A DNA stretch of 64,000 nucleotides from Clostridia bacterium (GCA_017472255.1 JAFUQU010000001.1:5304-69303), one strand, 5' to 3'; shown: positions 10,931-46,151, counted from the stretch's first letter. Numbers and translations are program-made. Notes: a model not told the origin generated them from the letters alone.

Positions 10931-10963
10931 GAGAAATTCCTCCTGAAGGAAATGTTCAATGGA

Positions 10964-10991
10964 ATTATATCATAAGACCGATAAAATGCAA
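10964..10991 (-). promoter_or_regulatory. promoter of the GRE operon (TTGCAT-N16-TGaTATAAT)
   Basis: Reverse complement reads TTGCATtttatcggtcttatgaTATAAT, about 35 nt upstream of the SD. Confidence 0.6.
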
Positions 10992-11036
10992 GATGCGGGC
11001 GGAGAAATTCATAGATTGTTTACAAACCGCCCCCCA

Positions 11037-11065
11037 TTGACAGGCGGGGGATTCTATGATATAAT
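11037..11065 (+). promoter_or_regulatory. consensus promoter TTGACA-N17-TGaTATAAT
   Basis: Exact -35 and -10 hexamers with an extended -10. Divergent from the GRE promoter. Confidence 0.7.
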
Positions 11066-11093
11066 GAAGAAAAAAACATCGGAGGACACAGCT

Positions 11094-11900
11094 ATGTACA
11101 CAAAATCGCAGCTTCACGAACAGCTTGCCGAAATGGGCGTGCCCCAGGACAGCGTTGTGCTGATGCACATTTCGCTCAAATCCGTGGGCGAGACCGAGGG
11201 CAGGGGAGAGGGACTGCTGGACGCGCTGATCGAATACTGTACCGCGAAGGGCGGGCTGTTCTGCGTGCCCACCCACACCTGGGCGAACCTGAAGGATGTG
11301 GACACCAAGCCCACCCTCGACCTGAATTCGGACGAAACCTGCATCGGCGCGTTTCCGTCCATCGCCGCCCGCCGTCCCGACGGACACCGCTCGCTCCATC
11401 CCACCCATTCGATGATCGTCTTCGGCGACGCCGACCGCGCCGAGGCGTACATCAAGCCGGAGGAAACCAATCCCACTTCCACCGGTCCTTCCGGCTGCTA
11501 CGGACAGCTGGCTTCCCTGGGCGGCAAGGTTCTGCTGGTGGGCGTAGGGCACAACCGCAACACCTATCTGCACTCGGTGGAGGAAATGCTGGACGTGCCC
11601 AACCGCCTGACCGTTAAGCCGAAAAACGCCACCGTGAAGCTGAAATCGGGGGAGATTATTACTCACCCGCTTCGCTGCCACAACGCGGTGGGAATCGGCG
11701 ACGTGTCGGCGCGCTATCCCAAGTATGAACCCGCCTTCCGCTGGCATAACTGCATCGTGGACGGTCATGTGGGCGACGCGCCCGCGCAGCTCTGCGACGC
11801 GGTCGGGATGCGGGATGTGCTGACGCTGGTGCGTGAACGCAGCGGCGGCATTGAGCTGATGCAGGAGCACGACCCGCTGGACGAGAAATATTACAAGTGA
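11094..11900 (+). CDS. AAC(3)-family N-acetyltransferase (YokD-like)
   Basis: N-terminus MYTKSQLHEQLAEMGVPQDSVVLMHISLKSVG...PTHTW is typical of the family. GGAGG lies 8 nt upstream of ATG 11094. The track's longer N-terminus is rejected. Confidence 0.75.
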   Translation: MYTKSQLHEQLAEMGVPQDSVVLMHISLKSVGETEGRGEGLLDALIEYCTAKGGLFCVPTHTWANLKDVDTKPTLDLNSDETCIGAFPSIAARRPDGHRSLHPTHSMIVFGDADRAEAYIKPEETNPTSTGPSGCYGQLASLGGKVLLVGVGHNRNTYLHSVEEMLDVPNRLTVKPKNATVKLKSGEIITHPLRCHNAVGIGDVSARYPKYEPAFRWHNCIVDGHVGDAPAQLCDAVGMRDVLTLVRERSGGIELMQEHDPLDEKYYK

Positions 11901-11906
11901 AGTAGA

Positions 11907-11941
11907 AGAAGTACTGCCCGCCGGGCAGCACTTCTTTTTTG
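11907..11941 (+). terminator. rho-independent terminator
   Basis: 13-bp stem AGAAGTACTGCCC/GGGCAGCACTTCT (one mismatch) followed by TTTTTT. Confidence 0.8.
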
Positions 11942-11960: not shown

Positions 11961-11989
11961 TTGACAAAAGCCTGGTAATATGCTATACT
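11961..11989 (+). promoter_or_regulatory. promoter of the tetR-giant protein operon (TTGACA-N17-TGcTATACT)
   Basis: Exact -35, near-consensus extended -10. Confidence 0.7.
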
Positions 11990-12003
11990 GGTATCGCATA
12001 TTA
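11976..12003. promoter_or_regulatory. 28-bp near-perfect palindrome overlapping the -10 box; candidate TetR operator
   Basis: TAATATGCTATAC-tg-GTATCGCATATTA. 13-bp arms with one mismatch, enclosing the -10 hexamer at 11984-11989. Confidence 0.55.
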
Positions 12004-12057
12004 TTACACGTTATAAATCACGGTATAGAGCATATAACAAAAGAAAAGAGAGCGTAT

Positions 12058-12777
12058 ATGAAAGAAAACACATCAAGCAGGCGGATGGATGAAATGAGAG
12101 CCAGACTTATCAGCGTCTCGGCAAAATTGTTTCTGCGAAAGGGATATTCCTCCACCTCCCTGCGTGAAATCGCGTCGGAGGCGGGGGTGAATATTGGTTC
12201 GCTGATGCACCTGTTCCAGACCAAGGAAACTCTCCTGTGTGAACTGGTGAATTTCGTTCTGGAAGGGCAATTCCGAGCGGCGGAGCAGCTGCTTGACGGA
12301 ATTACGGACGACAAGCAGCTGTTCTGGGCGGCAGAGACGACACTTCAGCTATATATGGCGGAAAGCGATGAAAAGATTCGCGAGCTGTACGATGCGGCGT
12401 ACTCCCTGCCCAAAACCTCCGCAATCATTTATCAGAATATTGCGGAAAAGATTCATCATTACTTCGGCGAACTGCATCCGGAGTATGAGAAAAAGGATTT
12501 TTATGAGCTCGAAATCGCGTCCGGCAGCATCATACGCGGCTTTATAGCCGTCAGATGCGATGTATATTTTACCATGGAGCGGAAGGTTAAGCGGTATATT
12601 GAAACTGCTTTCCGCGTATATGGAGCGGATGACGGACAGATCGCCCGGGCCATAGCCTTTGTATCGCAGTTTGATTTCAAAAAGATTGCTAGTCAGACAA
12701 TCGATGCCATGCTGGCTTATCTCGAAAATCCAATGCACAGCAGTATATTCATCGAAAGAAAGGATCAAAACCAATGA
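12058..12777 (+). CDS. TetR/AcrR-family transcriptional regulator
   Basis: N-terminal HTH ARLISVSAKLFLRKGYSSTSLREIASEAGVNIGSLMHLFQTKETLL. Starts at ATG 12058. The stop overlaps the next gene's start (ATGA). Confidence 0.85.
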   Translation: MKENTSSRRMDEMRARLISVSAKLFLRKGYSSTSLREIASEAGVNIGSLMHLFQTKETLLCELVNFVLEGQFRAAEQLLDGITDDKQLFWAAETTLQLYMAESDEKIRELYDAAYSLPKTSAIIYQNIAEKIHHYFGELHPEYEKKDFYELEIASGSIIRGFIAVRCDVYFTMERKVKRYIETAFRVYGADDGQIARAIAFVSQFDFKKIASQTIDAMLAYLENPMHSSIFIERKDQNQ

Positions 12778-15700
12778 ACACAAAGAAACGAGTGACATCA
12801 GCGCTGATCACGGCGTCCGTGCTGTTTGGTATGCTGTCGCCTCTCGGCGGGTTTGCGCAGAAGGTCAGCGCCGCGACGGTACAGGAAAAACTGTTCGATG
12901 CCAGTGTGCTTTCATCGCTGCATCTACAGCCCAGCGATTTTATCAATGATGGATCCAGCCATGCTTCTGCTACCATCGGCGGCAATTTTTCGCATACCAG
13001 CAACAACCATACCTATGTCGCCAACGCCAATGAAGGCGATTATGCGGGAAGCTCCAGATATTATCCCGGCGGAAAGAGCTATTACCGCTCCTCCGATCAG
13101 GGCGTGAATGACGCCTGGTCAGTGGCAACAAAATGGACACCTTCCTCCGCACAGCGGGAGATTCTTTCGCGGCTTGTTACCTCCCAAAATCAGCTGCAAA
13201 TCAGTGCCCGGTACGACGGCTGGTATGATACGCAGGGTGGTAAGAGCGCCGGTCGCGCCTATGTGACTGTCGGTGACACCGCGAGCACAACCACGGATAC
13301 GCTGCCCACCAACGTCAGCAAGACAACCTATCACAACAGAAATACCAGCTGGGTCAATGTGACAAAATATGACGCTTTTATTCTCAACATCGGCGGTACG
13401 AAGGGCTCCACTGGTATTGTGAAGCATCGGAACTATGCCCGCGTCGCCTCGCCGGAGGTCTATCTCAAGGATATCACCGCGCCTTGGGTGGAGAGCATCA
13501 CCGTCGTGGACAATGGCTATAACAAGAACTACACGACGGGCGATGTGATCACTGTGGAGGTGAAGTTCTCCGAGCCGATCCGCGTCAAAAACGGTTACAG
13601 CTCCGCTTTTTCGCTGAACGGCTCCGGCATCAGTTCCTTTACCGTGACGAAGTACGACGATTACACCCAGACCGTGACCTTTCAGGCGACGGTGGGCGAC
13701 AACAGAAACCAGCAGATCAGCAAGGGCAATTTCAGCCTGACCCTGAATAGCAGCACATCGAACATCACCGACCTGGCGGGCAACGCACTGAACACCAGCA
13801 GCGCGGTCAAGAGCGCTGTGGATGAAAATGTGATCATCAGCGGCTATGTGCCGCGAGTCACGCGGGTTGTGTATTCCCACGCGCAGATCCTGAATAATAT
13901 GGGCGGATACGATGTCAGCTACGCTGTGCAGGGCAGTGTCAAGGCAAAGGATTTTCTGTATATCAGCCTGTACTTCAATCAGGAAGTTTACTCCCCGAAC
14001 GGCAGTGAAGCTTCGTCCAAGCTCAATGTGAAGATCGGCAACACGACAACGACTGCCAGCCTGTCCAGCAGGTACAAAAACGGCAAGCCGGTCACAAAAG
14101 CCGGGGATTCGTTTGACTGTCTGACCTACATGGTACAGATTCCCGAGGGGATCAGTGACGGCTCGGCTGTCGTGCTTCCCGCGTCGGAGGAAAGCGGATA
14201 TTGGACGCTGACAGACAACCAGGAATGGTTGAAATACTTCAAGGGCAATATGATTCTCACCAACACTGACAAAAAGCAGACGATCAACGCCAGAACGGAG
14301 ATCGTGACCAGCGGAAGCGGCATTCTTCCCGTGATTAAAACCGATTCCACCGCTCCCGTCCTTACTCTCACCGATCTGAACGGCACGATGGCTTCGGTCT
14401 ATCAGACGGAGAGTGAGGCCGCGTCGGGTACGCCCATCAACAGCTATACGCTGTATGTGAAATCGGATGAGGAAGTGCGCGGAAATGTGGAAGCGGTTCT
14501 GAAGTACGCTCCCAAATCCAACCGCAGCAATGTCAAGGATGCAACCGACACACTGTATACCGGTGCTTACACGGTATCTCCTGTCAAGGGTATGTGTCTG
14601 ACGTTCAGCATTCCGGCGGGCATCGATTCGGCGGATTACGATATCTGGCTCGAAGTGACCGCACAGGATGGTATTTACAACAAAGATACGACAAAATTTT
14701 ATCTGTGCGCGGATACATCCGCACCGACTGTGACGATCGAGAACGATCAGATGATCACGCTGGACGGCGGCATGAAGGCCTGGGAATATGATTTCAATAT
14801 CTCCGACAAGCTGTCTCAGACCGGTTCTGTCCTGCGCTATCGTTTTGATTCGTCCAAGAATGAATTCTTCTCGGATTCGGACACGAGTTTCAAGGTTTTG
14901 TCCGGGGCTTATGAAAACAGCGCTATTGTCAGCGGTACTATCGAATATTACGGCGTGGACGGCATGGGCAATGCCTCAGCCGTCATGACGGATCGCTTTA
15001 TTATCGGCGATATCTCCGAGCTTTGCAAGCCGGTGGATGCTGAATCCGCCAGTGATTATTCCAAGCCGCCCCGCTCGATTGCGTTTACAGATTTCGATGC
15101 GCCCCAGACTGTAACCGGCGGCACGCTGTACGATTATCTCGTTTACCGGATCAACGCGAACGGGGCGGTCAATGTAATCTGCAGCAAGGACGGCGGCGAT
15201 GTTTCGATTCCCGAAGACCAGCTGCAGAACAACTGCATAATCTATTATCAGAAGCTGTCCTCTACGGAGCAGGAGCTTAAAGCAAATCTAGCCAACGAAG
15301 AGCTTATGGCGGCCCTTCCGATGAGTGAGCTGCTATATCGCTGCGATAATACGGCGCCCAGTCTGAAGGCTAAGATAGTGGAAAATCACGTTGGCAATGC
15401 GGAATATCTGAGCATTACGGCACCCAACGAGGAGCATCCCGCCAATATCACGGGCATAAGCTTCGCGCTGTATGATTATACCGGCAAGCTGCTGGGCGAG
15501 CAGGATATGAGCAGCAAGTTTGTACACAACGGAACGGTTGTGGCAAGTATTTCGCTGGAAGAAATGCTGAATAAATTCTCACTCCCGTCCGGTGAGTACA
15601 CCATGATGGTGACGCTGACCGACGCGAACGGTCACAGCGGCACATATACCGTTTTTGAAAACGTGGCGATCATCAAGGATACGCCCACGCTGAGCAATCT

Positions 15701-18700
15701 GACGATTCTAAACGCAGATGAGACCATTGTGTGCGGCGAGGCTGACGCAGACAGTGTGTCTGTAGACAATGAAGCACTGTCTGAGAAGGCATATGCCTCC
15801 GCTTTCGCGGACGGATATCTGCTGCGCGCGGACGTCCGGATGCGTTATCAGGGCAATGCGTTCCCGTCGGGCAGCAGGCTTTCCTATGTGGTTTCCACGG
15901 ACGGCGGTCTGAACTGGACGGAGTACACGGAAGACGGTATCGTATATGAAAACGAGGAGCCCGTCATCGTTACGGAAAACGGTGAGCGGTATGTCGTTTA
16001 TACCATCACGCTTCCTCTTCCCGAGCAGAATGTGGACGGCGAAGCCAGCTGCCTTGTGCGGGTAAAGTGGGATGTAAACCCGTATGTAACGGACGGTGTG
16101 CGCGTCAGCACGCTGTACGATATGTCGGCGCCGCTCATTTCCGTGACGGAAACGGCGGTGGGCAGTGATGCCTCCGGCTGGAGCGATGTGATTGACTACA
16201 CCAACGACTATGTAAAGTTGTCCCTTCCGGTGTCCGACAGCGGCATCTGCCCGAACGCTCTGAAGGTTACTGTCAGCGAAGTGCGGGATGTGGACGGCAA
16301 TGTGATCGCCCCTTCGGCATATGCTTCCTATGTTGAGCTGACAGACAGCACTTCGTCGGCTCCCACGGCGATTGTTAAGGAGAGCGGCCGCGTGACTTTC
16401 ACGGTGACGGACGCATGGGGCAACACGGCGAACGTGACTTATGTCTGCGCGTGGATTGACGATATCGAGACGGGCTGCCATGTCTATACCGACGCAGACA
16501 CGGAGCTGTACACCTATTTCACGCTGAAGAATTATTCGGATTACACTCTCGCAGCAGTTCCGTCGGGCACGGAGCTTACCGCTGACAGTTCCGAAGAAGA
16601 GCTGGCTGCGGCTGCCGCGCTGTATCAGACGCTGCTGAATGAGGATTACTTGGAAACCGAATCCCTTGCGACCATGGCTGCTGCTCGCAGCGGCGACCTG
16701 AACTCTGCGCTGCGCATCTTCCAGCGCAGACTGACAGAGGAAGCCTATGACATCATCTGCATCGTATACGATCGCAGAGGCGGCTGGGAAGCGTACAATA
16801 TTATGACAGCTGTCAATGAAGCGACAGCCATCGAGGCAGAGCCGTTCACAAGCACCGTAACCAATCGCGGCAATGTGGTCAATGTGGTACAGACGCTGAC
16901 CTTCAATAAGATGGTGGCGCAGCTGGATGACGATCTGGTGGAAGAAATCATTCAGGACGGCTACACGCCGGATCGCGACGATATTTTCTTCGGCGAGCTT
17001 GCCTTCTCAAAAACCATCGAGGCCGTGATCGAGGATGATAACGTCCGCGAGGGTTCGACGATGGCGGAGGTATATGTTACCGACATCTACGGTCAGATTG
17101 CCATGGTTCCGGTTGATATCACCGGCACGACGATCATCGACTACGCGGGCTATACCATTACATATCTGGACAACGGTGAGCAGGTGGACGACGACCATAT
17201 TTTCGGCGGCAATTCTGCGATCACACTGGAAATCGTCGGAAATGACGGCATCAGCGTTCTTCAGGTGGATGCGTCCTATATGGACAACGTGGTTACGGAA
17301 GGCGTCGTGACCTATGACGGTGAGGAATATTACTCCAAAATTACCCTGACGATGGAAGCCGGCAAGCTGAACGGAGAGGGCTATTATCACGCGGCGGATA
17401 TCCGCATCCGGAACATTGCCGGTACGGAGAGCGAAGAATACGTGGACGAAATTGCCATTCAGTATGACACAAAAGCGCCGGTGTTCGTGGACGCGGTTGA
17501 GATGATTCGCCGGGACTCCTACGACCCCGGCAAGGTGGTCTACCTGTTCTACGACCGCCGCGAGGTTGTGAGAGTTCTGGAGAATACGGACGGTGAAGGC
17601 GGAGAATTCACGGCGGTTCCATCAACCAACGGTATCTACTATGCGCAGTATCTTGCCAACACCACACCGATGGTTGCCGCTGAGGACTGCGACGGCAATA
17701 CCACCGCAAAAATCACTGGTCCTGTGATCGAAGACATCGTGGTAAGCACGACTTTGACGGAGGGTGTGGATTTTGTACTGAATGTTTCAGACGAAAACGG
17801 AGAAGCGCTCGAGGACGGTGCGTATTACACCAACGTGATCGCCGAAATCCAGGCATTGGAGGGCGGCAAGTCCTTTACGGCAGAGCCGGACGGAGCAGTG
17901 ACCATTGAAACGGAAAACCCGTTCATTTTCCGTCTGACTGACGAAAATGGAAACACAACCATTTATTCCTATACCGCGCCCATTGACCGCACGCCGCCGA
18001 CGGTATCGACGGTGCAGGACAACGCGGGCAGTCTGGTAAAGCGCATCATCTATACCATCACAGCGACGGATGAAAAATCCGGCGTGGCGCAGGTGTACAT
18101 TGCGGGCGCCGGAAAATACGGGGAGGATGTCGTTCTTGATATGGACGAGGAATCCGGCGCGTATATTTTCACAACAAGCAGTCCGGATACTTACACGCTC
18201 TGCGTGGTTGATGCGCTGGGCAACCGGACGGAAAAGAAGATCTCCTCCAACTCCTCGGTCGTGGGCGATCTTGAAATTACGGTTACTTATCATACCCAGG
18301 GAAAGACCAACAGAGGCTCCCGCGTCAGCCTACAGTCGGCGGACGGCAGACGCATTTATTCCAGGGTTGTTGACAGCACGATATCGGAAGCTGACTATTT
18401 CATCTCCGGCAATACGATCTATGTGATGAAGAACGGTATGCTGACGGTCAGCTGCTCGGACGAAATCGGAAATGCGGCGACAGCCAGTGTTGTGATCATC
18501 AATATCGACACAACCGCTCCCAAGGTAATATCGACAGTAACTGTGGCGGAAAATGAGGATGGGACGATCGATACCACACGCGCATATGTCACCTTCAAGG
18601 CCGAGGGTGAGGATGCGGACGCGGATGGCAATACCATCCCCGAAAGCGTGTATCTGCTGCGCATGACCGATCAGGATGTCACCTTTACCGACAACTGGGT

Positions 18701-19853
18701 CTGGGAGGAATGCGGCGGCAATCCCAAGGTGCTTTGGGCAAATTACACCGCGAATCCGGATCGGTATCGAGACGACGAGGACTTCCTTGCAATCTGCGAA
18801 ACCCTCTTCCGTCGGGATATCAGCGTAGGCTCGACCTATGTTGAGGTTACGACAAACGGTTCCCACACCTTCTATTTTGTAGATAACGCGGGCAATATAA
18901 CGACGACGACGGTCGAGGTTGACTGCATCGACGATACGGCGCCGGTTGTCGAATCTGTGAAATGGAACTTCAGCTATCTCACCGGCGAGCGGTTTGATAC
19001 GCTCACAGCTGCGCAGGGAAGCGTAACGGTGGAAAACGGACTGTATCTGATTGACAAGGATGTGACCAAGCATCTTACCAATCAGCCTGTTACTGTCACC
19101 ATTACCACGGATGAGCCGGTGGTTCTCCACGGCGGCGCCAGCACCAACTATAGTACCGTCATCAGCAAGACATTCTCCGAAAATGGTTTGTACTCCTTCA
19201 ATCTGGCGGATAAGGCGGGCAACATCCGTCAGTTGAATGTGGAGATTGCCAATATCCTGAAGCGTGAGATTCACATCAGTTTGGAGGATCCCGACGATCT
19301 CATCCTGATCGAGGGACAGGATGCGGGTACCAAACTGGAATCGCTGGCGAAGTTCAGCGTCTACACCTACGTTGATAAGGTGAAAACGGCGGTTTCCAAC
19401 GTGACATCCTATATCGATTACGGCAGCTTTGATTATACGGACATCACTAAGAACAAATTCAGCCGCAGAACACCATATACGATCCGGTATACCGTATGGG
19501 ATGAGGTCGGCAACAGCGCGACACTTTCCAAACAGATCATTCTGTGCGCGAAGGATGATATCCTTGTTCTGGTGGACGGAATTCTGCCCAATGAGTCCGG
19601 CAATGTTTATCTGACCAACGCGTCGGCGAAGGTGAACATCCAGAATTATGGCAGTCAGCCGGCCAGCGTACGCTTTGAAGCCGGACAGTACAACGGCGCG
19701 CAGATGAAGACGCGCGGCGAGCTTTTGAAGATCAACGATGACGGCACCTACACGCTTGAATTTTCCAAGGGTGACGGCTGGTACACATTGTACGTTCGCA
19801 CACTGTATCAGGATATGTATGTTGTGCATATCTACGTCAAAACATCCAATTAA
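12774..19853 (+). CDS. giant secreted multi-Ig-like-domain protein (2359 aa); no recognisable wall anchor
   Basis: Signal peptide MNTKKRVTSALITASVLFGMLSPLGGFAQKVSA. Nine D-x-[TS]-[AP]-P domain-boundary motifs (DITAPWV, DSTAPVL, DTSAPTV, DNTAPSL, DMSAPLI, DTKAPVF, DRTPPTV, DTTAPKV, DDTAPVV). No LPXTG, SLH or choline-binding end. Confidence 0.8.
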   Translation: MNTKKRVTSALITASVLFGMLSPLGGFAQKVSAATVQEKLFDASVLSSLHLQPSDFINDGSSHASATIGGNFSHTSNNHTYVANANEGDYAGSSRYYPGGKSYYRSSDQGVNDAWSVATKWTPSSAQREILSRLVTSQNQLQISARYDGWYDTQGGKSAGRAYVTVGDTASTTTDTLPTNVSKTTYHNRNTSWVNVTKYDAFILNIGGTKGSTGIVKHRNYARVASPEVYLKDITAPWVESITVVDNGYNKNYTTGDVITVEVKFSEPIRVKNGYSSAFSLNGSGISSFTVTKYDDYTQTVTFQATVGDNRNQQISKGNFSLTLNSSTSNITDLAGNALNTSSAVKSAVDENVIISGYVPRVTRVVYSHAQILNNMGGYDVSYAVQGSVKAKDFLYISLYFNQEVYSPNGSEASSKLNVKIGNTTTTASLSSRYKNGKPVTKAGDSFDCLTYMVQIPEGISDGSAVVLPASEESGYWTLTDNQEWLKYFKGNMILTNTDKKQTINARTEIVTSGSGILPVIKTDSTAPVLTLTDLNGTMASVYQTESEAASGTPINSYTLYVKSDEEVRGNVEAVLKYAPKSNRSNVKDATDTLYTGAYTVSPVKGMCLTFSIPAGIDSADYDIWLEVTAQDGIYNKDTTKFYLCADTSAPTVTIENDQMITLDGGMKAWEYDFNISDKLSQTGSVLRYRFDSSKNEFFSDSDTSFKVLSGAYENSAIVSGTIEYYGVDGMGNASAVMTDRFIIGDISELCKPVDAESASDYSKPPRSIAFTDFDAPQTVTGGTLYDYLVYRINANGAVNVICSKDGGDVSIPEDQLQNNCIIYYQKLSSTEQELKANLANEELMAALPMSELLYRCDNTAPSLKAKIVENHVGNAEYLSITAPNEEHPANITGISFALYDYTGKLLGEQDMSSKFVHNGTVVASISLEEMLNKFSLPSGEYTMMVTLTDANGHSGTYTVFENVAIIKDTPTLSNLTILNADETIVCGEADADSVSVDNEALSEKAYASAFADGYLLRADVRMRYQGNAFPSGSRLSYVVSTDGGLNWTEYTEDGIVYENEEPVIVTENGERYVVYTITLPLPEQNVDGEASCLVRVKWDVNPYVTDGVRVSTLYDMSAPLISVTETAVGSDASGWSDVIDYTNDYVKLSLPVSDSGICPNALKVTVSEVRDVDGNVIAPSAYASYVELTDSTSSAPTAIVKESGRVTFTVTDAWGNTANVTYVCAWIDDIETGCHVYTDADTELYTYFTLKNYSDYTLAAVPSGTELTADSSEEELAAAAALYQTLLNEDYLETESLATMAAARSGDLNSALRIFQRRLTEEAYDIICIVYDRRGGWEAYNIMTAVNEATAIEAEPFTSTVTNRGNVVNVVQTLTFNKMVAQLDDDLVEEIIQDGYTPDRDDIFFGELAFSKTIEAVIEDDNVREGSTMAEVYVTDIYGQIAMVPVDITGTTIIDYAGYTITYLDNGEQVDDDHIFGGNSAITLEIVGNDGISVLQVDASYMDNVVTEGVVTYDGEEYYSKITLTMEAGKLNGEGYYHAADIRIRNIAGTESEEYVDEIAIQYDTKAPVFVDAVEMIRRDSYDPGKVVYLFYDRREVVRVLENTDGEGGEFTAVPSTNGIYYAQYLANTTPMVAAEDCDGNTTAKITGPVIEDIVVSTTLTEGVDFVLNVSDENGEALEDGAYYTNVIAEIQALEGGKSFTAEPDGAVTIETENPFIFRLTDENGNTTIYSYTAPIDRTPPTVSTVQDNAGSLVKRIIYTITATDEKSGVAQVYIAGAGKYGEDVVLDMDEESGAYIFTTSSPDTYTLCVVDALGNRTEKKISSNSSVVGDLEITVTYHTQGKTNRGSRVSLQSADGRRIYSRVVDSTISEADYFISGNTIYVMKNGMLTVSCSDEIGNAATASVVIINIDTTAPKVISTVTVAENEDGTIDTTRAYVTFKAEGEDADADGNTIPESVYLLRMTDQDVTFTDNWVWEECGGNPKVLWANYTANPDRYRDDEDFLAICETLFRRDISVGSTYVEVTTNGSHTFYFVDNAGNITTTTVEVDCIDDTAPVVESVKWNFSYLTGERFDTLTAAQGSVTVENGLYLIDKDVTKHLTNQPVTVTITTDEPVVLHGGASTNYSTVISKTFSENGLYSFNLADKAGNIRQLNVEIANILKREIHISLEDPDDLILIEGQDAGTKLESLAKFSVYTYVDKVKTAVSNVTSYIDYGSFDYTDITKNKFSRRTPYTIRYTVWDEVGNSATLSKQIILCAKDDILVLVDGILPNESGNVYLTNASAKVNIQNYGSQPASVRFEAGQYNGAQMKTRGELLKINDDGTYTLEFSKGDGWYTLYVRTLYQDMYVVHIYVKTSN

Positions 19854-19871
19854 GACCAGGGAGCATACACA

Positions 19872-22800
19872 ATGAGAATCGTGAAAAGAATCATCTCAGC
19901 CGTTCTGGCAGCAGCAATGCTGCTGCCGGGACTAACGGTTGACATATTGGGTACCGAAACAGCGTCTGGTACGGTATCCTTACAGAGCGGAATGAGCATC
20001 AGCAATGACTACATGGAGTTTTCCATCAACAAGGATACTGGCTTTTTCGCAATCACCACGCTGGAGGGACATCCTCAGAAGAAGGGGGACAATAATATAG
20101 CGCTGCTGTACGATGGGGATTCCATCGAGACCTCCTTCACGACAGTACGCATCGACGGCACCGACTATATCTTCGGACAGGAATACGGCATCTTTGGCAT
20201 TGACACCAAAATGGAAGAACCCAAGGTGGACGTTGTCAACAACATCATCTCGCGGACATGGACGATTCACAGCATCTCCATCACCGAAAAGGCGCAGCTC
20301 TCCCGGACGGACAACACGTCCACCACGGGCAGTGTGCGTCTGTCCTATGAGGTTGTGAACAACGCCGGCAAGGCACATACGGTCGGAATCCGCGTGATGC
20401 TGGACAACGCGCTGGGGACGATTGACGCGCCGATTACCATGACGCAGAACGAGCTGGCGCCCATTTCCAAGGAAGCGGAGTTCTTTGTTAAAAATGCGGA
20501 CGGTACCGTTCGTGATCCCGGTATGTATATCCGCTATATTGACAGCTATGAGAATCCGACCAAGGAAGCGTACATAACCTTCAGCGGTCTGGAGACGCCG
20601 GATGTGAGCCGTATGGTTGTCGGTCACTGGTATCATCTGGCATCCTCAAAGTGGCAGTGCACGCCGGATACCGATCTCGCTTTCGACAACGGCTTCAACA
20701 CCTACGGTACGGCGGATACGGCTACGGCGCTTTACTGGAATGAAACCACGCTGAATCCCGAAGGAAAGCTCATCCGCAGCCTTACCTACGGTGTAGGCGA
20801 ATTCACGGCAGACGCGGCGAGTGCCGAGTTTAACATCTCCCTTTCGCTGAACGGCGAGCTTGAATTCAATGAAGCGGGCGAATATAAGAATGATATCTAT
20901 GATGCAACGCTCCAGGTTTACAACAATGTGGACGGCAGCGTTGATATCCAGAACGCGACGCTGAATCTGGCGGTGGACAGCGGGCTGAAGATTCTGCTGC
21001 CCGCAGATGACGAAACCTTCGTTTATCTTGACGAATACACCTCGCAGCTCGGTTTTATGGCGGCGGGCACGGTGGAGACATATACCTTCCAGATTCAGGT
21101 GGAGGAACAGATTGAACTGACTCCGCTGGAGGTACGGGCGACGGTGCGCGGCAATTCGGATACAGATTCTGTCCGTGCATCGCAGTACATTCTCGCGCCC
21201 GGACGGAAAGCCACGGAGTATTCCGTCAGCGTTGAGACCATCACGGACAAGACCTATCACTGTGAGGGACAGCGCGTCATGATGGCGTTTGGCTCCTTCC
21301 CGTCCGCGCTGATGGAGGACCGCACCCTGTGGGCGGCGGCATTCGTGAACACCCAGGACAAGAGTATCCGCTATGAAATCGATACCGATAGCATTGTGGT
21401 GGACGATAAGCGGATGACCATCCAGTACACAGGCGATATGGTGATTGGTCAATATGCGCTGGAGCTTGCCTTCTACGGTGCACTGGAGGAGCTTGTCGGC
21501 AATGTCTATACCTCGTCGGCAACATTCAGCATTGTGAACAATCCCTCGCTGATGACAAACCAGTACGCATATGTGGTTGCATACCGTTCCGGTGCGGGAA
21601 CAGCATCGCAGTATTACATTCAGAGCCTGAGCTCCGACGCGGCGCTGGAAGCCTTTAAGCAAAGTCTGGAAGCGAAGAACGATGCGAACAACGATAACGT
21701 TGCGGAAGCCATTCTGGTGCTGAAGGGCAGCTTTGAGGCGATTCGCAATGATGATGAGCAGATTGTCGGTTATTCCGCGCTTCAGGATTTTACGGTCAAC
21801 GATGTGATAACGGGCAAAAAAGGCTCCACGTTGACGTATGGCGATTTTACCGAAAGTTCGAAGAACCCGGGAACCTTTTACTGGAATTATGTCATCCTGA
21901 ACGGTGTGGGTGAGGTTCGCACGGCGACCTCTCCCATTATGGACAGCGACTGGCATATTATACTGACCAATAATGTCTTCTACTCGATTTCTTCCAAAAA
22001 CGTCAAGCTGGAAGCGACCGGACTTCCGGGATATATGATGGATATAGCCGGCGGTCTCATCAATCTGAAGTACGGCGTTTTCGGCAAGGATGCTGAGCTT
22101 GGCAACTATATCAGCTTTGGCGGCAGCTTTACGCTGACCGGCTACGGCGTAGCCAACGGCGATTATATGACGACAGACGCACCTCCGGTCAACGATCTCG
22201 GCTTCAACGCCGCGAAATATCAAACGCCGGAAAAACTGAAGGTCAACAAGAAAACCATATATGCCGGTGCGGCAATTGACGACGTGATTTTCAACAAGGA
22301 CGGCTTCTGCGGCATCAACACCACCATTGAAATCGGTGTTGGTGCGTCGAATATCCTGCGTACCAGCAACAAGGAAATGTTCTCGCTGATGCTCTACATC
22401 AATACCTTCGACAACATGACGGTCGGCGGTGAGATTACATTCTCGGTAAAAAGCTATACGGTCGTTCTGGGAATTGAGTTCAGAATGGCCACGACCAAGC
22501 TGGGAGAGAGCCAGTTACTGATCAATTCCATTAAAGCGTCGGTGGCGATACCGCCCACAGCGCCGTTGGATCTCATCCCGCCTTATGTGGGGCTGACATC
22601 GGCAGGCTTTGCCCTGAACGGTCTGGTGGACGCGATTGAGCTTACCGGTATGGAGGCTCAGGAGGCGGTGGCGGCGGTCAGCAGCCTGACGTCGAACATC
22701 ACCGTCAGCATCGGTGCCATCATTGTGCGCGTCCTGTCAGCTACCGGTATACTGGAATTAAGCCCCAATCATTTTACCCTCACGGTAGTACTTGGCAGCC

Positions 22801-25800
22801 CGTATCTGCCTGGATTGACTGGTACTGTCTCCGCAGGCATGAAATGGCGTGTGGCTGTGCGGGATAAGGATGGCAATGTCCTGTCTCCGCTCAAGATCAG
22901 TGCATTTCTTTTCCTAGGCGCCAACATTTTTGATATTGCACTTGTGAACGGAACGTTAAGCATTTCCGCTGCCGGTGAAACGGGCAATCCGGAAGAAGCT
23001 TTCGCGAACGAATCGGTTCACGGCGGATTGCAGATATATGGTGTAGTTAAGGTTCCGGCTGTGGTTCCCGTGTTCGGCGGGATGGAGCTTTTCGACGGTA
23101 CGGGTATCATCAATGATATCGGTTTTTCCCTTGCAGTCAATGTGTGCGGTGTTGAATTCATTGTATCGCAGGGCTGGGACGATGAAGACGTAGCGTTCAC
23201 CTATGCGGTTGGCGAAGGGGAAGATGAGAAGATATCCTTCGGCAATATGCAGATGCTTCTTGTAGAGGAAGTGCCCGAGGAGCCGGCGTCGGTCTTTGCA
23301 CTCCGCAGAACCATGGCAGAGCTGCCCACCATGACGTCCTACATTACCACCGTGGACAGCAGCGATGCGGTCATTGCGGTCAGATATACCGGCGAGCATC
23401 CCAGCGCAGACGGATTGGCTCTTACCATCGACGGTGAGGAATATCCGCTCACAGAAGCCACCGCTGACGATTATTACGGCAACGGCAACTGCGCGATTGT
23501 TCCCGATGCAGACGGAGAGGGCGGCAGAATCATCATCGGCGTGAAGAATCCGGGGGCAGGCAAGAAGACCTATACCATTACCTCCGCGTCCGAGCTGATA
23601 TTCACCGGCATGGAAGCACTGGCACTCCAGGGCAGCGCATCGATTGAAAGCGTTGCGGTCAACGCGGACGAATCCATCACGGTAACAGCCGACAGAAGTC
23701 TCAAGGGCAGCACCGTGAATCTCTACTACACGGATTCTCCCGATCTGTACGAAAATATCCGCACGGATACCTATGAGGAAGACGGCGAAACCAAGCTTCG
23801 CGTTTACTCTGTGGATGCGGACGGACATGAAATCGATCTGGACATGAACGGAATGTCGAAAATCAGCGAGCATTGTGTCTACACGGAAACCGTGACTGCG
23901 GACAGCGATACGATCACGATTCCCAAGTCCGCTCTGGATGTGGATGAGAACATGAAGTCCGGCGAATATTATGTCCTGGCGGCTGTTATCTCCACAAATA
24001 GAAGGGTTACTCGCGCGTCTGACAAGACGAGCCGGATGATTCATGAGAATGCCAACGAGCCGGAGCAGGTTGCTTCCGCGTCTCTGGTTGATATCGGTGA
24101 CGAAACGCTGGAGCTTGTGATCACGGATGGCGAGTCCGCTGACTACGATGGCTACTATATCAGCGTTTATGACTCCGAGGGCGAATATCTCATAGAGGAT
24201 ACCTATTACTCGACCGACGAAGTGATCACTTTCGACGGTGAGGCCGGAAAAACTTATCAGGCGGAAATCTATACCGTGAAAACGGTGTCGGACGGAGACA
24301 CGTCCGATGTGGCAGTCTCGGGCAGTGCCTATACGACGGAGCCGGTTACGCTGCATAAGCCGACCACGGTGGAAATCACCAGCTTTGTGATGAACAACGA
24401 CACGGTCTCCGGCAGCTTCACCCGCATGGATGAAACCGGCGAAAATGTGACCGACATGGTTGACTACATCAGCGGCAGAACAGCTTCCTTCACAGTAACA
24501 ACCGCTGAGGATGTGCAGGGCTACTTTATCATCGACGGCATGGAAGCCATAATGAACGCCCCGGATAAGCTGACAAACCAGTTCTTCTACTACGGTGAGT
24601 TTGATGAAGGCGTTCACACGGTTGCCTTCCGCGCAGTCAATTCGCAGGGCGACAGCACGGTAACGGAGGGGATCACCTTCGGCGTCAATGTGTCCGAAGC
24701 GTCCATTCTGGTGGAATCCGCTATCATTCCTGTGGCGGAGGATGGAACGATCACCATCCGCGGTCTGGCGCACAATACGGAGACGATCGCTTTCCAGGGA
24801 AAGACATACACCCCTGCAGCGGACGGTACGTTTGAAATCACGGAAGCTGTCAGCCTTGACCGTTTCGCACAGCGCTATATGCTGACAGCGACCGGTCCTT
24901 CCGATCTGACCGCCGTTTCCAGCATCCTCGTTGTGGATACATCCTATGAGCCGATTTCCTCCGTGGATATCCTTGTGGACGGCGTGTCCGAGGATCAGAT
25001 CACAGCGGAGCCGGGCGATACACTGACTCTTTCTGCGGTAGGCTATGCGGGCAGTGAGATACGCGATGTTAGCGACGGCGCGGAGCTGTCCGTCGTGAAG
25101 GGCAGCAATGTGGCTGTGCTGGACGGCAATTCGCTGAAGCTCACCGCTTCCGGTACGGCGTTTGTGAAGCTGACCTACAATATGGGCAGCTATATCCTCG
25201 ACAGCCGGACGGATGATTATCGCTTTGAGGATATCATCGAAATTACCGTATCGGAGCGTTCCTCCGGCGTGACCGCGTCCATCCCGAACGGCGCGACGGT
25301 AGAGAAGGGAACACTGCTGACGCTGGAAGGCGATGGTACCATCTATTATACCACCGACGGTTCCGAGCCGACTACCGATTCGCTGCGCTATACCGGACCC
25401 ATCGAGATCACGGAAAGTGTCATCATCAAGGCGCGTGCGTACGCGGACGGCGAGCTGGCGAGCGAGATTACGACCATCACGGTCAACGTGTCCGACAACT
25501 CCGATGGCGGCGGCATTTTCATTCCGATTCTGAAGCCCAATGAACCTGTAATTGGCTCCTCCGTGACGGATACGTCCGTGGACGAGGGATATCCGGTCGA
25601 GCTGACAACAGACGCGGACGGCGTGATCTGCTACACGACGGACGGCACGACGCCGGACAGAAATTCGGCGAAGTATGAAGCTCCGATAATCCTGACAGAG
25701 GACACTGTGATCAAGGCGGTCGTATGGTACGGCGGCGATCGCTACAGCGAGGTGCAGACCTTCACCTATACGATCAATACGTATTGGATCCGCCTGAACG

Positions 25801-26336
25801 GCGAGATTCAGAAGACGCAGCTGATGAACGGCTATCCCGACGGAACCTTCCGCCCGGATGACAAGCTGACCCGCGCAGAAGCGGCGACCATCCTGCGGCG
25901 CGCGACCATCATGACCGGCTATCATATCTCTGACGGCGTGTTCAGCGATACGGAAATGTGGGCGGAGCAGTACATCAATGAACTGGCTGCTGCCGGTATC
26001 GTGAACGGTTATCCGGATGGCACCTTCCGCCCGGACAACACCGTGACCCGCGCCGAGTTCGTGACCATGCTGATGCGCATCATCGGTCAGGAAGGCGGTC
26101 GGAATGGATTTGCGGACGTTCAGGGACACTGGGCGGAGAAATATGTCGCCAAGGCGGCTGAATACGGTTATGTGGGCGGCTATCCCGACGGAACCTTCCG
26201 CCCGGACGCATCAATCACCCGTGCGGAGGCATTCAAGATTATGTCCACCGTGTTCGGATGGGAAGCGGACGGTACAGAATCGCGGTTTACCGATGTAACG
26301 GAAGCGCACTGGGCGTTCGGTTATATCGCTGACTGA
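19872..26336 (+). CDS. giant S-layer-homology-anchored surface protein (2154 aa)
   Basis: Signal peptide. Big_2-like segment. Two chitobiase/hexosaminidase-C-like modules (GTIYYTTDGSEPT, GVICYTTDGTTPD). Three C-terminal SLH repeats (NGYPDGTFRPD x3, about 25800-26333). Starts 18 nt after the previous gene, with SD AGGGAG. Confidence 0.85.
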   Translation: MRIVKRIISAVLAAAMLLPGLTVDILGTETASGTVSLQSGMSISNDYMEFSINKDTGFFAITTLEGHPQKKGDNNIALLYDGDSIETSFTTVRIDGTDYIFGQEYGIFGIDTKMEEPKVDVVNNIISRTWTIHSISITEKAQLSRTDNTSTTGSVRLSYEVVNNAGKAHTVGIRVMLDNALGTIDAPITMTQNELAPISKEAEFFVKNADGTVRDPGMYIRYIDSYENPTKEAYITFSGLETPDVSRMVVGHWYHLASSKWQCTPDTDLAFDNGFNTYGTADTATALYWNETTLNPEGKLIRSLTYGVGEFTADAASAEFNISLSLNGELEFNEAGEYKNDIYDATLQVYNNVDGSVDIQNATLNLAVDSGLKILLPADDETFVYLDEYTSQLGFMAAGTVETYTFQIQVEEQIELTPLEVRATVRGNSDTDSVRASQYILAPGRKATEYSVSVETITDKTYHCEGQRVMMAFGSFPSALMEDRTLWAAAFVNTQDKSIRYEIDTDSIVVDDKRMTIQYTGDMVIGQYALELAFYGALEELVGNVYTSSATFSIVNNPSLMTNQYAYVVAYRSGAGTASQYYIQSLSSDAALEAFKQSLEAKNDANNDNVAEAILVLKGSFEAIRNDDEQIVGYSALQDFTVNDVITGKKGSTLTYGDFTESSKNPGTFYWNYVILNGVGEVRTATSPIMDSDWHIILTNNVFYSISSKNVKLEATGLPGYMMDIAGGLINLKYGVFGKDAELGNYISFGGSFTLTGYGVANGDYMTTDAPPVNDLGFNAAKYQTPEKLKVNKKTIYAGAAIDDVIFNKDGFCGINTTIEIGVGASNILRTSNKEMFSLMLYINTFDNMTVGGEITFSVKSYTVVLGIEFRMATTKLGESQLLINSIKASVAIPPTAPLDLIPPYVGLTSAGFALNGLVDAIELTGMEAQEAVAAVSSLTSNITVSIGAIIVRVLSATGILELSPNHFTLTVVLGSPYLPGLTGTVSAGMKWRVAVRDKDGNVLSPLKISAFLFLGANIFDIALVNGTLSISAAGETGNPEEAFANESVHGGLQIYGVVKVPAVVPVFGGMELFDGTGIINDIGFSLAVNVCGVEFIVSQGWDDEDVAFTYAVGEGEDEKISFGNMQMLLVEEVPEEPASVFALRRTMAELPTMTSYITTVDSSDAVIAVRYTGEHPSADGLALTIDGEEYPLTEATADDYYGNGNCAIVPDADGEGGRIIIGVKNPGAGKKTYTITSASELIFTGMEALALQGSASIESVAVNADESITVTADRSLKGSTVNLYYTDSPDLYENIRTDTYEEDGETKLRVYSVDADGHEIDLDMNGMSKISEHCVYTETVTADSDTITIPKSALDVDENMKSGEYYVLAAVISTNRRVTRASDKTSRMIHENANEPEQVASASLVDIGDETLELVITDGESADYDGYYISVYDSEGEYLIEDTYYSTDEVITFDGEAGKTYQAEIYTVKTVSDGDTSDVAVSGSAYTTEPVTLHKPTTVEITSFVMNNDTVSGSFTRMDETGENVTDMVDYISGRTASFTVTTAEDVQGYFIIDGMEAIMNAPDKLTNQFFYYGEFDEGVHTVAFRAVNSQGDSTVTEGITFGVNVSEASILVESAIIPVAEDGTITIRGLAHNTETIAFQGKTYTPAADGTFEITEAVSLDRFAQRYMLTATGPSDLTAVSSILVVDTSYEPISSVDILVDGVSEDQITAEPGDTLTLSAVGYAGSEIRDVSDGAELSVVKGSNVAVLDGNSLKLTASGTAFVKLTYNMGSYILDSRTDDYRFEDIIEITVSERSSGVTASIPNGATVEKGTLLTLEGDGTIYYTTDGSEPTTDSLRYTGPIEITESVIIKARAYADGELASEITTITVNVSDNSDGGGIFIPILKPNEPVIGSSVTDTSVDEGYPVELTTDADGVICYTTDGTTPDRNSAKYEAPIILTEDTVIKAVVWYGGDRYSEVQTFTYTINTYWIRLNGEIQKTQLMNGYPDGTFRPDDKLTRAEAATILRRATIMTGYHISDGVFSDTEMWAEQYINELAAAGIVNGYPDGTFRPDNTVTRAEFVTMLMRIIGQEGGRNGFADVQGHWAEKYVAKAAEYGYVGGYPDGTFRPDASITRAEAFKIMSTVFGWEADGTESRFTDVTEAHWAFGYIAD

Positions 26337-26351
26337 ACACATTGACCAAAT

Positions 26352-26391
26352 AAAGAATGAGCAGCTACACAAACGTGCAGCTGCTCATTCT
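26352..26391. terminator. bidirectional terminator hairpin between convergent genes
   Basis: Perfect 14-bp stem AAGAATGAGCAGCT/AGCTGCTCATTCTT with a 12-nt loop, flanked by A/T runs. Confidence 0.75.
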
Positions 26392-39254: not shown

Positions 39255-39286
39255 AATAGTGGTACGTAATATACGTGCTGTTGAAT

Positions 39287-39526
39287 GATAGAGGCGCATT
39301 TTCCGATGAGTAGGCAGATCAGGCGTGATTGACCCATCCGCTGCGGCGCACCGTGGCCGTTAAGACCTTCCGAAAGGCCGAAGATGCCGAAGATAAGCAG
39401 CGGCGGGCGCTGCCTGTCTGGTTCCAGCGCGAATCCCGTTTCGCGCACGAAAGCGTTGCTTTCAGGCGAACAGCCATGGAACTGTCATCATATTGCCGCC
39501 TTCGCGCGGCTTGATGGAGAGCTATC
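39287..39526 (+). promoter_or_regulatory. lysine riboswitch (L-box) aptamer
   Basis: Conserved L-box blocks in order: GATAGAGGCGC, GATGAGTAGGC, GATGCCGAAG, CTGG, ACTGTCA, TGGAGAGCTATC. P1 is GATAG/CTATC. This matches the B. subtilis lysC and T. maritima L-box patterns as I recall them. Confidence 0.85.
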
Positions 39527-39592
39527 TGAATGTATCAGAATATTGCGGTGGGCGCCGATACTGTCCTCCTTAATATTATAGTACATAGATAG

Positions 39593-45809: not shown

Positions 45810-45829
45810 CGGCTTATTATAAATAAACA

Positions 45830-45860
45830 GGCGGCACCGCGTCAGCGGTGCCGCCTTTTG
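45830..45860. terminator. terminator between convergent genes
   Basis: AGGCGGCACCGC-gtca-GCGGTGCCGCCT followed by TTTT. Confidence 0.8.
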
Positions 45861-45863
45861 GGT

Positions 45864-46088
45864 TTATTCTTCCGGCGGGATATATTCGATCAAGTCGCAG
45901 ATATCGCATTCCAGCGCGGCACATAAGCGTGCAAGCACATCCAAATCAATTCGTGCAATATCGTTTTTACAATAACGATTTAATTGTGTGCGTTCCATCT
46001 CTGCCCGATGACATATTTTGCTCTTGCTGATTCCTGATTTTTTGATTTGCTCCTCTAATTTCAAACGAATAATTCCATGTGTACTCAT
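45864..46088 (-). CDS. XRE-family HTH regulator (74 aa), paralog A
   Basis: SKSKICHRAEMERTQLNRYCKNDIARIDLDVLARLCAALECDICDLIEYIPPEE. ATG 46088 is preceded by GGGAG. Confidence 0.75.
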   Translation of the reverse strand: MSTHGIIRLKLEEQIKKSGISKSKICHRAEMERTQLNRYCKNDIARIDLDVLARLCAALECDICDLIEYIPPEE

Positions 46089-46107
46089 ATAAACCGACTC
46101 CCATCGA

Positions 46108-46122
46108 ATAATTAACAATTAT
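46108..46122. promoter_or_regulatory. palindrome ATAATT-N3-AATTAT between the two XRE genes; candidate operator
   Basis: Perfect 6-bp arms, located 20 nt upstream of the paralog A start. Confidence 0.3.
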
Positions 46123-46151
46123 GAAATATCGTATAATGATATTACTTTGGT

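Follow-up and report, generated by a model that had tools for sequence, protein, structure and literature searches.

Introduction

The display of adhesive structures at the bacterial surface is placed under a repressor in two described systems among those closest to the locus considered here. In Staphylococcus, the TetR-family repressor IcaR governs a cell-surface adhesive structure through icaADBC, with icaR being transcribed divergently, and the targets being the enzymes that make a polysaccharide. In the Gram-negative Neisseria meningitidis, the repressor NadR belongs to the MarR family, and is encoded apart from nadA. This small-molecule-responsive repressor is reported to act at operators near the promoter, and to gate the display of the adhesin NadA (PMC2791445). 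The present analysis deals with a locus of a Clostridia bacterium (GCA_017472255.1, JAFUQU010000001.1:5304-69303), in which a tetR gene precedes the genes of two giant secreted proteins, referred to here as G1 and G2. The window is the whole stretch of 64 kb that was analyzed; all coordinates are positions in this window, unless prefixed by the number of a comparison locus (Lnnn).

As in the IcaR system, a TetR-family repressor would govern a cell-surface structure here, but with tetR leading the operon, and with the proteins of the structure itself as its predicted targets. The likeness to NadR and NadA is that of a ligand-responsive repressor gating an adhesin, with the ligand response being predicted here, although neither protein has any sequence relationship to those of the locus. 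On balance, the locus is probably an operon that was acquired by horizontal transfer, represses itself, and encodes a cell-surface structure of two proteins.

Organization of the operon and its predicted control

An earlier note on this DNA had described one promoter and one terminator bracketing three genes, a tetR and two very long reading frames, and all of these elements are present (Table 1). The stop codon of tetR and the start codon of G1 share an ATGA (12774-12777), only 18 nt separate G1 from G2, and both giant genes are preceded by a Shine-Dalgarno sequence (AAGGA at 12760-12764 for G1, and AGGGAG at 19858-19863 for G2). Inside the unit, promoter-like matches (17 vs. 13.1 ± 3.5 in shuffled sequence) and terminator-like matches (14 vs. 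13.3 ± 4.2) are both at chance level. The left edge is formed by the terminator that ends the upstream acetyltransferase gene, and the right edge by a hairpin able to serve both G2 and the convergent HAD gene, which was overlooked in the consensus terminator scan because its T-tail is short on the + strand. A single tetR-G1-G2 transcription unit, with tetR first, is supported by this layout.

Two further points of the earlier note stand only in part. The overlap on which it had based translational coupling is present in the window, but is specific to it, as the orthologues have gaps of 13-42 nt between tetR and G1, which are too short for a promoter to fit. An internal promoter that drives the giants without tetR, which the same note had considered, is not favored by the chance-level matches, yet two weak sites exist within tetR, and are weighed below.

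Table 1. Features of the island and their coordinates in the 64-kb window
Feature	Position	Strand	Description
Upstream intrinsic terminator	11905..11937	+	Hairpin then T-run; dG -19.1, z -4.4
Predicted sigma-A type promoter	11961..11989	+	TTGACA, 17 nt, TATACT, extended -10 TG; 11/12 consensus positions
Second imperfect palindrome, ATGCTATAC-TG-GTATCGCAT	11980..11999	.	Overlaps the operon -10; 9-bp arms, 1 mismatch
Predicted TetR operator, TTATTACACGTTATAA	12001..12016	.	16-bp palindrome, consensus TTATAAC-NN-GTTATAA, 12 nt after -10
tetR, 239 aa	12058..12777	+	Open reading frame; PF00440
G1, 2359 aa, secreted	12774..19853	+	Open reading frame
G2, 2154 aa, secreted, SLH-anchored	19872..26336	+	Open reading frame
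G2 N-terminal domain (aa ~40-310)	19989..20801	+	Best conserved part outside the anchor; outside Pfam models
G2 hydrophobic Gly-rich block (aa ~730-1100)	22059..23171	+	AlphaFold2 model: ~20 long antiparallel strands, local confidence (pLDDT) mostly 75-90
Two Fn3_assoc/CHB_HEX_C_1 modules of G2 (aa ~1799-1965)	25266..25781	+	PF13287 101.7 bits, PF13290 94.3 bits, 2 stretches each
Three SLH repeats of G2 (aa ~1971-2154), cell-wall anchor	25782..26333	+	PF00395 141.6 bits, 3 stretches
Bidirectional hairpin terminator	26352..26391	.	15-bp hairpin; dG -29.4 on +, -38.8 on -; z -9.2 and -10.3

The predicted operator is the only match to TTATAACRYGTTATAA in the 64 kb at up to two mismatches, with none being expected from 100 shuffles, and it covers the expected transcript start. 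The palindrome is kept in L002, L005, L008, L009, and L096, and lies 9-17 nt past the -10 element in L002, L008, and L009, while the same type of promoter is found equally placed in the orthologous loci L002, L008, L009, L006, and L115. Loci with divergent TetRs have other perfect palindromes in the same position, that is, TTTAGGTCATGACCTAAA in L006 and GAAACGCGTTTC in L115. Locus L005 retains the promoter and the palindrome along with the G1 leader, but its tetR reading frame is cleanly missing, which makes it a natural tetR deletion. Such a geometry of promoter and palindrome would be expected if the repressor shut off its own operon, with both the binding and the ligand response being predicted. 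The second palindrome is specific to the window, and is not conserved among the orthologous loci; it could be either a second binding site or a chance match.

In the TetR protein, the TetR_N domain (PF00440) is recognized at residues 17-61, with 46.7 bits against a cut-off of 24, the length of 239 aa falls in the range of about 190-250 aa typical of the family, and the C-terminal domain is conserved within the clade, while the last 13 residues are a window-specific extension that arises from the overlap with G1. The orthologues that adjoin G1-G2 are 52-69% identical to it, and where TetR is present, it diverges roughly in step with G1 (Table 2), which points to co-inheritance. The solved TetRs match mostly in the helix-turn-helix only; QacR aligns to approximately residue 165, and IcaR (2zcm, 3geu), which is among the structures that match the clade profile, to approximately residue 135 only. 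No solved TetR structure matches past about residue 165 in the PDB profile comparison. From the biology of TetR and the position of the operator, it is a reasonable inference, made already in the earlier note, that the surface proteins would be displayed only in the presence of a small molecule.

Some other candidate features of the unit were set aside. An ATG at 11980 was rejected as the start of tetR, given that it sits within the promoter; the start at 12058, which also aligns with the N-termini of the orthologues, is taken as the real one. Antisense open reading frames opposite G2 and G1 (1057, 525, and 499 aa) were rejected as artefacts, because the sense strand of G2 has only 10 TTA, CTA, or TCA codons, and the antisense frame is closed in the lower-GC orthologues. 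An RNA leader or riboswitch in the 5' untranslated region was rejected, as the island has no match to an Rfam family; no tRNA genes lie near the island, and there are no tandem DNA repeats.

The two giant proteins

Both giants have a signal peptide, as recognized by eye from a basic n-region, a hydrophobic h-region, and an AXA-type cleavage site. In G1 this covers approximately residues 1-33 (MNTKKR...LFGMLSPLGGFAQKVSA, with cleavage between VSA and the A that follows), and in G2, approximately residues 1-30 (MRIVKRIISAVLAAAMLLPGL). The AlphaFold2 models of both N-termini begin with a helix, which is followed by a low-confidence stretch. The earlier note could name no domain in most of either protein, and this still holds after Pfam, NCBIfam, PDB profile, and fold searches, in which matches were found only in the anchor region of G2 and to generic beta-sandwiches.

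The G1 protein is acidic (net charge -155) and rich in Thr, Ser, and Val, with nine DxTAP-type inter-domain motifs and no anchor of its own. Neither its single sequence nor a profile built on it has a significant match in Pfam, NCBIfam, or the PDB. An exhaustive HMMER search of its first 1200 residues against 1.84 billion representatives recovered approximately seven true relatives, four of them full-length, and a profile search meant to widen the family returned partial Ig-like matches only, with known relatives being missed owing to the word index. The orthologues are variable, with a mean identity of 37-58% per 100 aa. The AlphaFold2 model of residues 1-1200 (8 sequences, pLDDT 68) is a string of beta-sandwiches, almost wholly beta, for which Foldseek recovered only multi-domain Ig/FN3/MG chains and adhesin repeats, that is, generic beta-sandwich matches, which is also how the MG-domain matches are read. 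Readings of the giants as thioester (alpha-2-macroglobulin), LPXTG, dockerin, or cohesin proteins were rejected, as the motifs are absent; neither G1 nor G2 has a CxEQ thioester motif or an LPxT[GAS] motif, and Pfam recognizes no dockerin or cohesin in the window copies, a dockerin being present only in the Paenibacillus homologues of G2.

In G2, the signal peptide is followed by approximately 1750 residues without a Pfam domain, two Fn3_assoc/CHB_HEX_C_1 modules, and three SLH repeats. In a profile comparison with the PDB, the SLH region matches those of Sap and SbsB; it has GYPDGTFRPD motifs at residues 1987, 2046, and 2103, while the protein outside the anchor region has no PDB match. The family comprises 72 clusters, in which the anchor may be SLH, a dockerin, or none. 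The AlphaFold2 model of residues 1-1200 (50 sequences, pLDDT 76) is almost all beta, and begins with a sandwich that corresponds to the N-terminal domain. This domain has a mean identity of 59-63% among the orthologues (33-49% in the middle of the protein), and 22 invariant columns over 50 family members, including D73, D98, R174, D178, E201, H252, W253, and D282; none of five diverse members has a Pfam match in this domain. Foldseek finds a low-TM likeness of the domain to the N-domains of GH94 enzymes and to OpgD (probability 0.99-1.0), and its other matches to the G2 model are transglutaminase sandwiches, MG domains, and a weak match to the S-layer protein Sap. The hydrophobic Gly-rich block has a single fold match, a weak one to LptD, which is not meaningful, as it aligns 1137 columns at a root-mean-square deviation of 34 Å.

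These likenesses bring in a different view of the pair, as a surface machine for the capture or degradation of glycans, of the cellulosome or amylosome kind, rather than as an adhesin. In this view, a supersandwich with carbohydrate-binding or catalytic function would form the N-terminal domain of G2, and the breakdown product would be sensed by TetR. The invariant Asp, Glu, His, Trp, and Arg residues, the Foldseek links, the Fn3_assoc and CHB_HEX_C modules, which are typical of glycosidases, the dockerins of the Paenibacillus homologues, and the fact that TetR repressors often sense substrates or products would all fit such a machine. However, Pfam, NCBIfam, and PDB profile searches recover no catalytic or carbohydrate-binding module family, the TM-scores are very low, and at none of the loci does the cassette have linked genes for sugar transporters or kinases, so that this view is considered unlikely.

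The composition and the variability of the giants are also features of surface coats, and the pair might be an alternative, stress-induced S-layer-like shield against phages, host factors, or predators, with no specific binding function. The SLH anchor, the acidic Thr/Ser-rich composition, and the all-beta domains are typical of S-layer proteins, the match to Sap points the same way, the giants diverge as fast as variable surface proteins, at the identities given above for G1 and for the middle of G2, and the gene set is mobile and patchily distributed. Against this, there is no match to a PADLOC defense model, primary S-layer genes are usually expressed highly and constitutively rather than gated by a repressor, and a 2:1 excess in size over typical S-layer proteins, together with the beads-on-a-string model, favors a fiber over a lattice; a shield of this kind is improbable. 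An anti-phage defense system was rejected for the same lack of a PADLOC match, with the NCBIfam match to "DUF499_antiphage" covering the Fn3_assoc-like module only.

The G1-G2 cassette in the Bacillota

Twelve distinct genomic contexts of the pair were retrieved, and G1 lies immediately 5' of G2 in all of them (Table 2). The partners in Paenibacillus and in Bacilliculturomica, whose genomes belong to the Bacilli and the Peptostreptococcales, are both true homologues of G1, recovered by tblastn at E = 3e-42 and 2e-29, with a pairwise E = 1e-49 for the Paenibacillus partner. On this comparative evidence, the G1-G2 pair is shown to be an old and conserved Bacillota cassette. In the 12 loci, G1 is always without an anchor and never away from G2, and for this reason G2 would presumably hold G1 on the wall. 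A TetR accompanies the pair at six loci, with a LytTR regulator, a MalT-like neighbor, or no regulator at the others, so that the system consists of G1, G2, and an SLH anchor, either fused or separate, with interchangeable regulators. The reading of the earlier note has to be amended in this respect: TetR does not form an integral part of the giant-protein system, given that the pair occurs without it in Paenibacillus, in Bacilliculturomica, and in several Clostridia metagenome-assembled genomes (MAGs).

Table 2. The 12 genomic contexts of the G1-G2 pair, with identities to the window proteins (those of G1 in Paenibacillus and Bacilliculturomica cover only the C-terminal 340-720 aligned residues)
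Locus	G1 identity	TetR identity	Regulator	Other features
Window	100%		TetR	SLH fused to G2
L002-4	72%	61% (L002)	TetR	Alkyl sulfatase upstream
L005	71%		None (tetR lost by deletion)	Promoter and operator retained
L007	58%		None	Different promoter
L008	57%	69%	TetR	
L009/10	52%	67% (L009)	TetR	Alkyl sulfatase downstream
L115	45%	52%	TetR	G1 interrupted by stop codon
L114	42%		LytTR, upstream, co-oriented	Additional 1295-aa SLH protein downstream
L013	34%		None	
L006	32%	27%	TetR	Serine recombinase; inside feoB
L011/12, Paenibacillus CP009284	28-29%, C-terminal region only		None	SLH-bearing C11 peptidase upstream; dockerin on G2; separate 533-aa SLH protein
L116, Bacilliculturomica massiliensis	29%, C-terminal region only		MalT/LuxR-like neighbor, opposite strand	Separate 333-aa SLH protein

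The surroundings of the pair differ in several ways between the loci. In Paenibacillus, the clostripain (C11) peptidase lies 5' of G1-G2 (L011:1248-2900), and the start of the separate SLH protein overlaps the stop of G2 (L011:15688-17289), a layout which suggests that the giants are processed, and anchored via a separate protein. In L114, a LytTR-domain regulator and an 81-aa open reading frame replace TetR 5' of G1 (L114:1772-2868), and the third large protein, with SLH repeats, lies 3' of G2 (L114:16412-20299). In L115, the G1 orthologue (L115:2981-9985) is cut by an in-frame TAA in the first DxTAP motif, into pieces of 240 and 2065 aa, so that the gene has either decayed to a pseudogene or been misassembled.

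An alkyl-sulfatase gene (Lactamase_B, Alkyl_sulf_dimr, and Alkyl_sulf_C domains) adjoins the cassette in three lineages (L002:6984-9059; L010:14532-16571; L009:16825-18093; L007:15850-16980), with 74-77% identity between loci. It lies 5' of tetR in one lineage and 3' of G2 in the others, and there is none in the window. This neighbor may give a clue to the ligand, or may have belonged to a larger island in an ancestor.

Surface-protein operons headed by related regulators

Relatives of the window TetR are also found at the head of other operons. In two goat-caecum MAGs (L027:1-4311, minus strand, and L028), a tetR 57% identical to that of the window lies approximately 6 kb from the isoleucyl-tRNA synthetase gene (IleRS), with an equal layout of promoter and palindrome (a perfect palindrome, CCGAAACGCGTTTCGG), and 20 nt 3' of the L027 tetR begins the gene of a protein that has a signal peptide and beta-helix repeats, and is more than 1170 aa long. 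A scan of metagenomes with two motifs of the ligand-binding domain recovered 20 loci, at 35-57% identity. The next co-oriented gene encodes a signal peptide or a lipobox in approximately 12 of the 14 informative cases, a count in which near-duplicate contigs are pooled and the goat-caecum locus is included, and which stands as a descriptive association, with no control clade. The exceptions are L105 (a membrane protein) and L107.

The downstream proteins are mutually unrelated, and include a GLUG coiled-coil lipoprotein, a BspA-type leucine-rich repeat (LRR) protein with FN3 domains, a Flg_new/MBG/PKD giant of more than 1774 aa, an M6-like lipoprotein, and several proteins without a Pfam domain. 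Most of these operons have a TTGACA-17-TATAAT promoter followed at once by a palindrome; the operator type of L096 is that of the window. The TetR-led surface operon had been presented in the earlier note as an oddity; within this clade it is the rule, with approximately 12 operons for unrelated surface proteins being headed by relatives of 46-57% identity, and the clade appears to be specialized for operons of this type. Since half of the G1-G2 loci function without TetR, and weak promoter-like sites occur inside tetR, TetR might be no more than a passenger that regulates something else or nothing, with the giants being constitutive or internally promoted and the palindrome a coincidence or a site of tetR autoregulation only, but this is very improbable in the face of the overlapping stop and start codons, which leave no room for a terminator, the short tetR-G1 gaps of the orthologues, the promoter and operator of L005, which directly precede and would drive G1 after the loss of tetR, and the repetition of the layout of promoter, palindrome, tetR, and surface gene in so many unrelated operons.

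Genomic setting and acquisition of the island

The island is compositionally distinct, as the earlier note had held, with both its overall GC content and its GC content at third codon positions (GC3) lying below those of its surroundings. The GC content is 48-54% across 12-25 kb vs. 58-62% in the immediate flanks, and GC3 is 0.571 in tetR, 0.665 in G1, and 0.668 in G2 vs. 0.764 ± 0.028 in 11 host genes (z = -7.0, -3.6, and -3.5, respectively). The cassette as a whole, at 53.3%, is near its closest relatives (51.6-51.9%) and below the host (57-62%), and over the loci, its GC content roughly tracks that of the host, with deviations in both directions.

The presence of the island in relatives, a check that the earlier note had proposed, was assessed through the conserved neighbors. 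The nearest IleRS among the GTDB species representatives (79-81% identical) come from MAGs of Candidatus Flemingiibacterium, that is, of Clostridia from the gut that are uncultured. The IleRS-LspA-RluD block is kept in all 80 relatives retrieved, and the cassette is missing beside it in every one, and a 10-kb flank on the side of IleRS that faces the island carries neither TetR, nor G1, nor G2 in any of the 80 species. The tetR-clade gene of L027 and L028 is unrelated to the island, and lies on the other side of IleRS.

The neighboring genes differ between most of the 12 loci. In L006 (L006:3249-21376, GCA_054267815.1), an insert made up of the TetR-G1-G2 cassette, a 55-aa open reading frame, and a 536-aa large serine recombinase has split feoB, with an N-terminal fragment 5' of the insert (best-matching stretch at model positions 1-181), and a downstream fragment that resumes from position 363 of 594. 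The best NCBIfam matches of the recombinase are CcrB and XisF; its domains are Resolvase, Recombinase, and Zn_ribbon, with a DUF4368 tail. Carriage by a phage or a plasmid was rejected, as IMG/VR contains no relative of G2 in viral contigs, and the only plasmid match is a partial one, 24% identical, in Bacillus cereus.

In the window, the flanking genes encode a pyruvate formate-lyase (PFL)-like glycyl-radical enzyme and its activase, a protein of the aminoglycoside-N-acetyltransferase family, a Cof-type HAD hydrolase, RluD, LspA, and IleRS. The PFL neighbor shared by the window and L115 is a coincidence, as the two PFLs are 43% identical and differently oriented. The acetyltransferase gene (10959-11900) is a 313-aa Antibiotic_NAT open reading frame with a perfect 12/12 sigma-70 promoter match (TTGACA-17-TATAAT with TG) inside its 5' end, at 11037-11065, and the Pfam match begins only at residue 68. 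The gene, a member of the aminoglycoside-3-N-acetyltransferase family, probably begins only downstream of 11065.

Further away, a low-GC patch at 44940-47000 (41% at 46-47 kb) includes a gene resembling PDDEXK_2 transposases (44940-45809), along with two small paralogues on the minus strand (45864-46118 and 46152-46445), which resemble helix-turn-helix DNA-binding proteins; this patch is possibly another small acquired segment. The window also contains a lysine riboswitch (39281-39532, 66 bits) and, at its left end, a cluster of tRNA-Thr, tRNA-Leu, and tRNA-Val (33-314).

The proposed mechanism and its implications

In the self-repressed surface operon proposed here, a TetR dimer would bind the palindrome just past the -10 element of the near-consensus promoter, and would block the transcription of tetR itself and of the co-transcribed G1 and G2, until a ligand released it from the operator; the loss of tetR, as in L005, would lead to constitutive expression. 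Both giants would be exported via their Sec signal peptides, with G2 being tethered non-covalently to a wall polymer through its three C-terminal SLH repeats, and the anchorless G1 most likely being held by G2. Together, G1 and G2 would build up a fiber of beta-sandwich domains, approximately 490 kDa in size, which would act in the manner of an adhesin or bind glycans. The lineage would have acquired a TetR-equipped copy from a lower-GC relative.

A number of observations weigh against this proposal. As regards acquisition, the Thr/Ser/Asn/Asp-rich composition of the giants could explain part of the GC deficit, though GC3 argues otherwise; the window copy has no recombinase and no direct or inverted border repeats of at least 8 bp, and there is no clean empty site, given that synteny past the HAD gene is lost even in the closest genomes. 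As regards control, half of the G1-G2 loci lack TetR, which is therefore an accessory; the weak 9/12 promoter-like sites at 12541 and 12722 are possible drivers of G1; and no ligand can be read across from known structures, as none matches TetR past about residue 165. As regards the fiber, the contact between G1 and G2 is deduced from their conserved adjacency and the anchorless state of G1 only, and TM-scores of at most 0.23 per target for GH94 and OpgD leave the adhesin or glycan-binding role weakly grounded.

Beyond the locus itself, it is possible, if only tentatively proposed, that the TetR clade is a general, modular switch for surface display in the gut Clostridia and that, independently of this, G1-G2(-SLH) is an unrecognized and ancient heteromeric surface fiber of the Bacillota. 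The paralogues of the clade may each respond at a separate operator and, presumably, to a separate gut-metabolite ligand, and each may stand as the first gene before a different secreted protein, so that the targets of the switch may be BspA-type LRR proteins, GLUG lipoproteins, beta-helix giants, or G1-G2. If this were so, the cells would remodel their surface upon chemical cues, and approximately 4,000 residues of G1-G2, including the N-terminal domain of G2, would represent new domain families.

To our knowledge, almost nothing is known of how uncultured gut Clostridia choose their surface proteins. The locus offers a concrete, testable circuit of one promoter, one 16-bp operator, and one repressor, which recurs before many unrelated surface proteins, and which makes it possible to screen for gut-metabolite ligands with a simple reporter. 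The pair of giants spans Paenibacillus to the Clostridia, and the lack of Pfam or PDB coverage outside the anchor makes it a candidate source of new domain families. Cultured carriers exist, in Paenibacillus, such as Paenibacillus sp. FSL R7-0331, and in Bacilliculturomica massiliensis, and the tetR-less variants L005 and L007, together with the recombinase-borne copy of L006, provide natural comparisons.

Comparison with known systems

The mobility of L006 recalls the cargo of serine recombinases, such as SCCmec with Ccr, the fdxN element with XisF, and Tn4451 with TnpX, in that the cassette and its recombinase interrupt feoB. The likeness involves one distant relative only, and the window copy has no recombinase or recognizable att repeats.

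The giant adhesins (SiiE, Ebh, MpIBP, and the GhpA type) share with the models of G1 and G2 the long chains of Ig-like beta-sandwiches, with Foldseek matches to 6xi3 (adhesin repeats) and 9flw (GhpA). Here, by contrast, two different giants occur in a fixed order, the predicted route is Sec export and an SLH anchor rather than a type I secretion system or a sortase with LPXTG, and the lack of tandem DNA repeats implies that the domains of G1 and G2 are old and divergent.

The three tandem SLH repeats are those of known SLH proteins, such as Sap and EA1 of B. anthracis, SbsB of G. stearothermophilus, and the anchoring scaffoldins of C. thermocellum, and the separate SLH protein of Paenibacillus and Bacilliculturomica, with the dockerin of the Paenibacillus G2, is reminiscent of the anchoring of the cellulosome. 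Nevertheless, the other ~1950 residues of G2 and the whole of G1 are unrelated in sequence to these proteins, and the window has no cohesin or dockerin.

The regulator fits repression of the TetR/QacR type in its domain, its size, and the geometry of its predicted operator. In repression of this type, a helix-turn-helix homodimer acts at a palindrome of ~15-18 bp that overlaps the promoter or the start of the transcript, and a ligand releases it. The present regulator differs in that the targets are not efflux pumps or catabolic enzymes, and that the ligand-binding domain has no close solved relative. The earlier note had allowed for the arrangement being already described; a literature search found no account of it, or of the protein families. 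The locus is an undescribed variant of the repressor-gated display of SLH-anchored surface proteins, with two uncharacterized families of giants.

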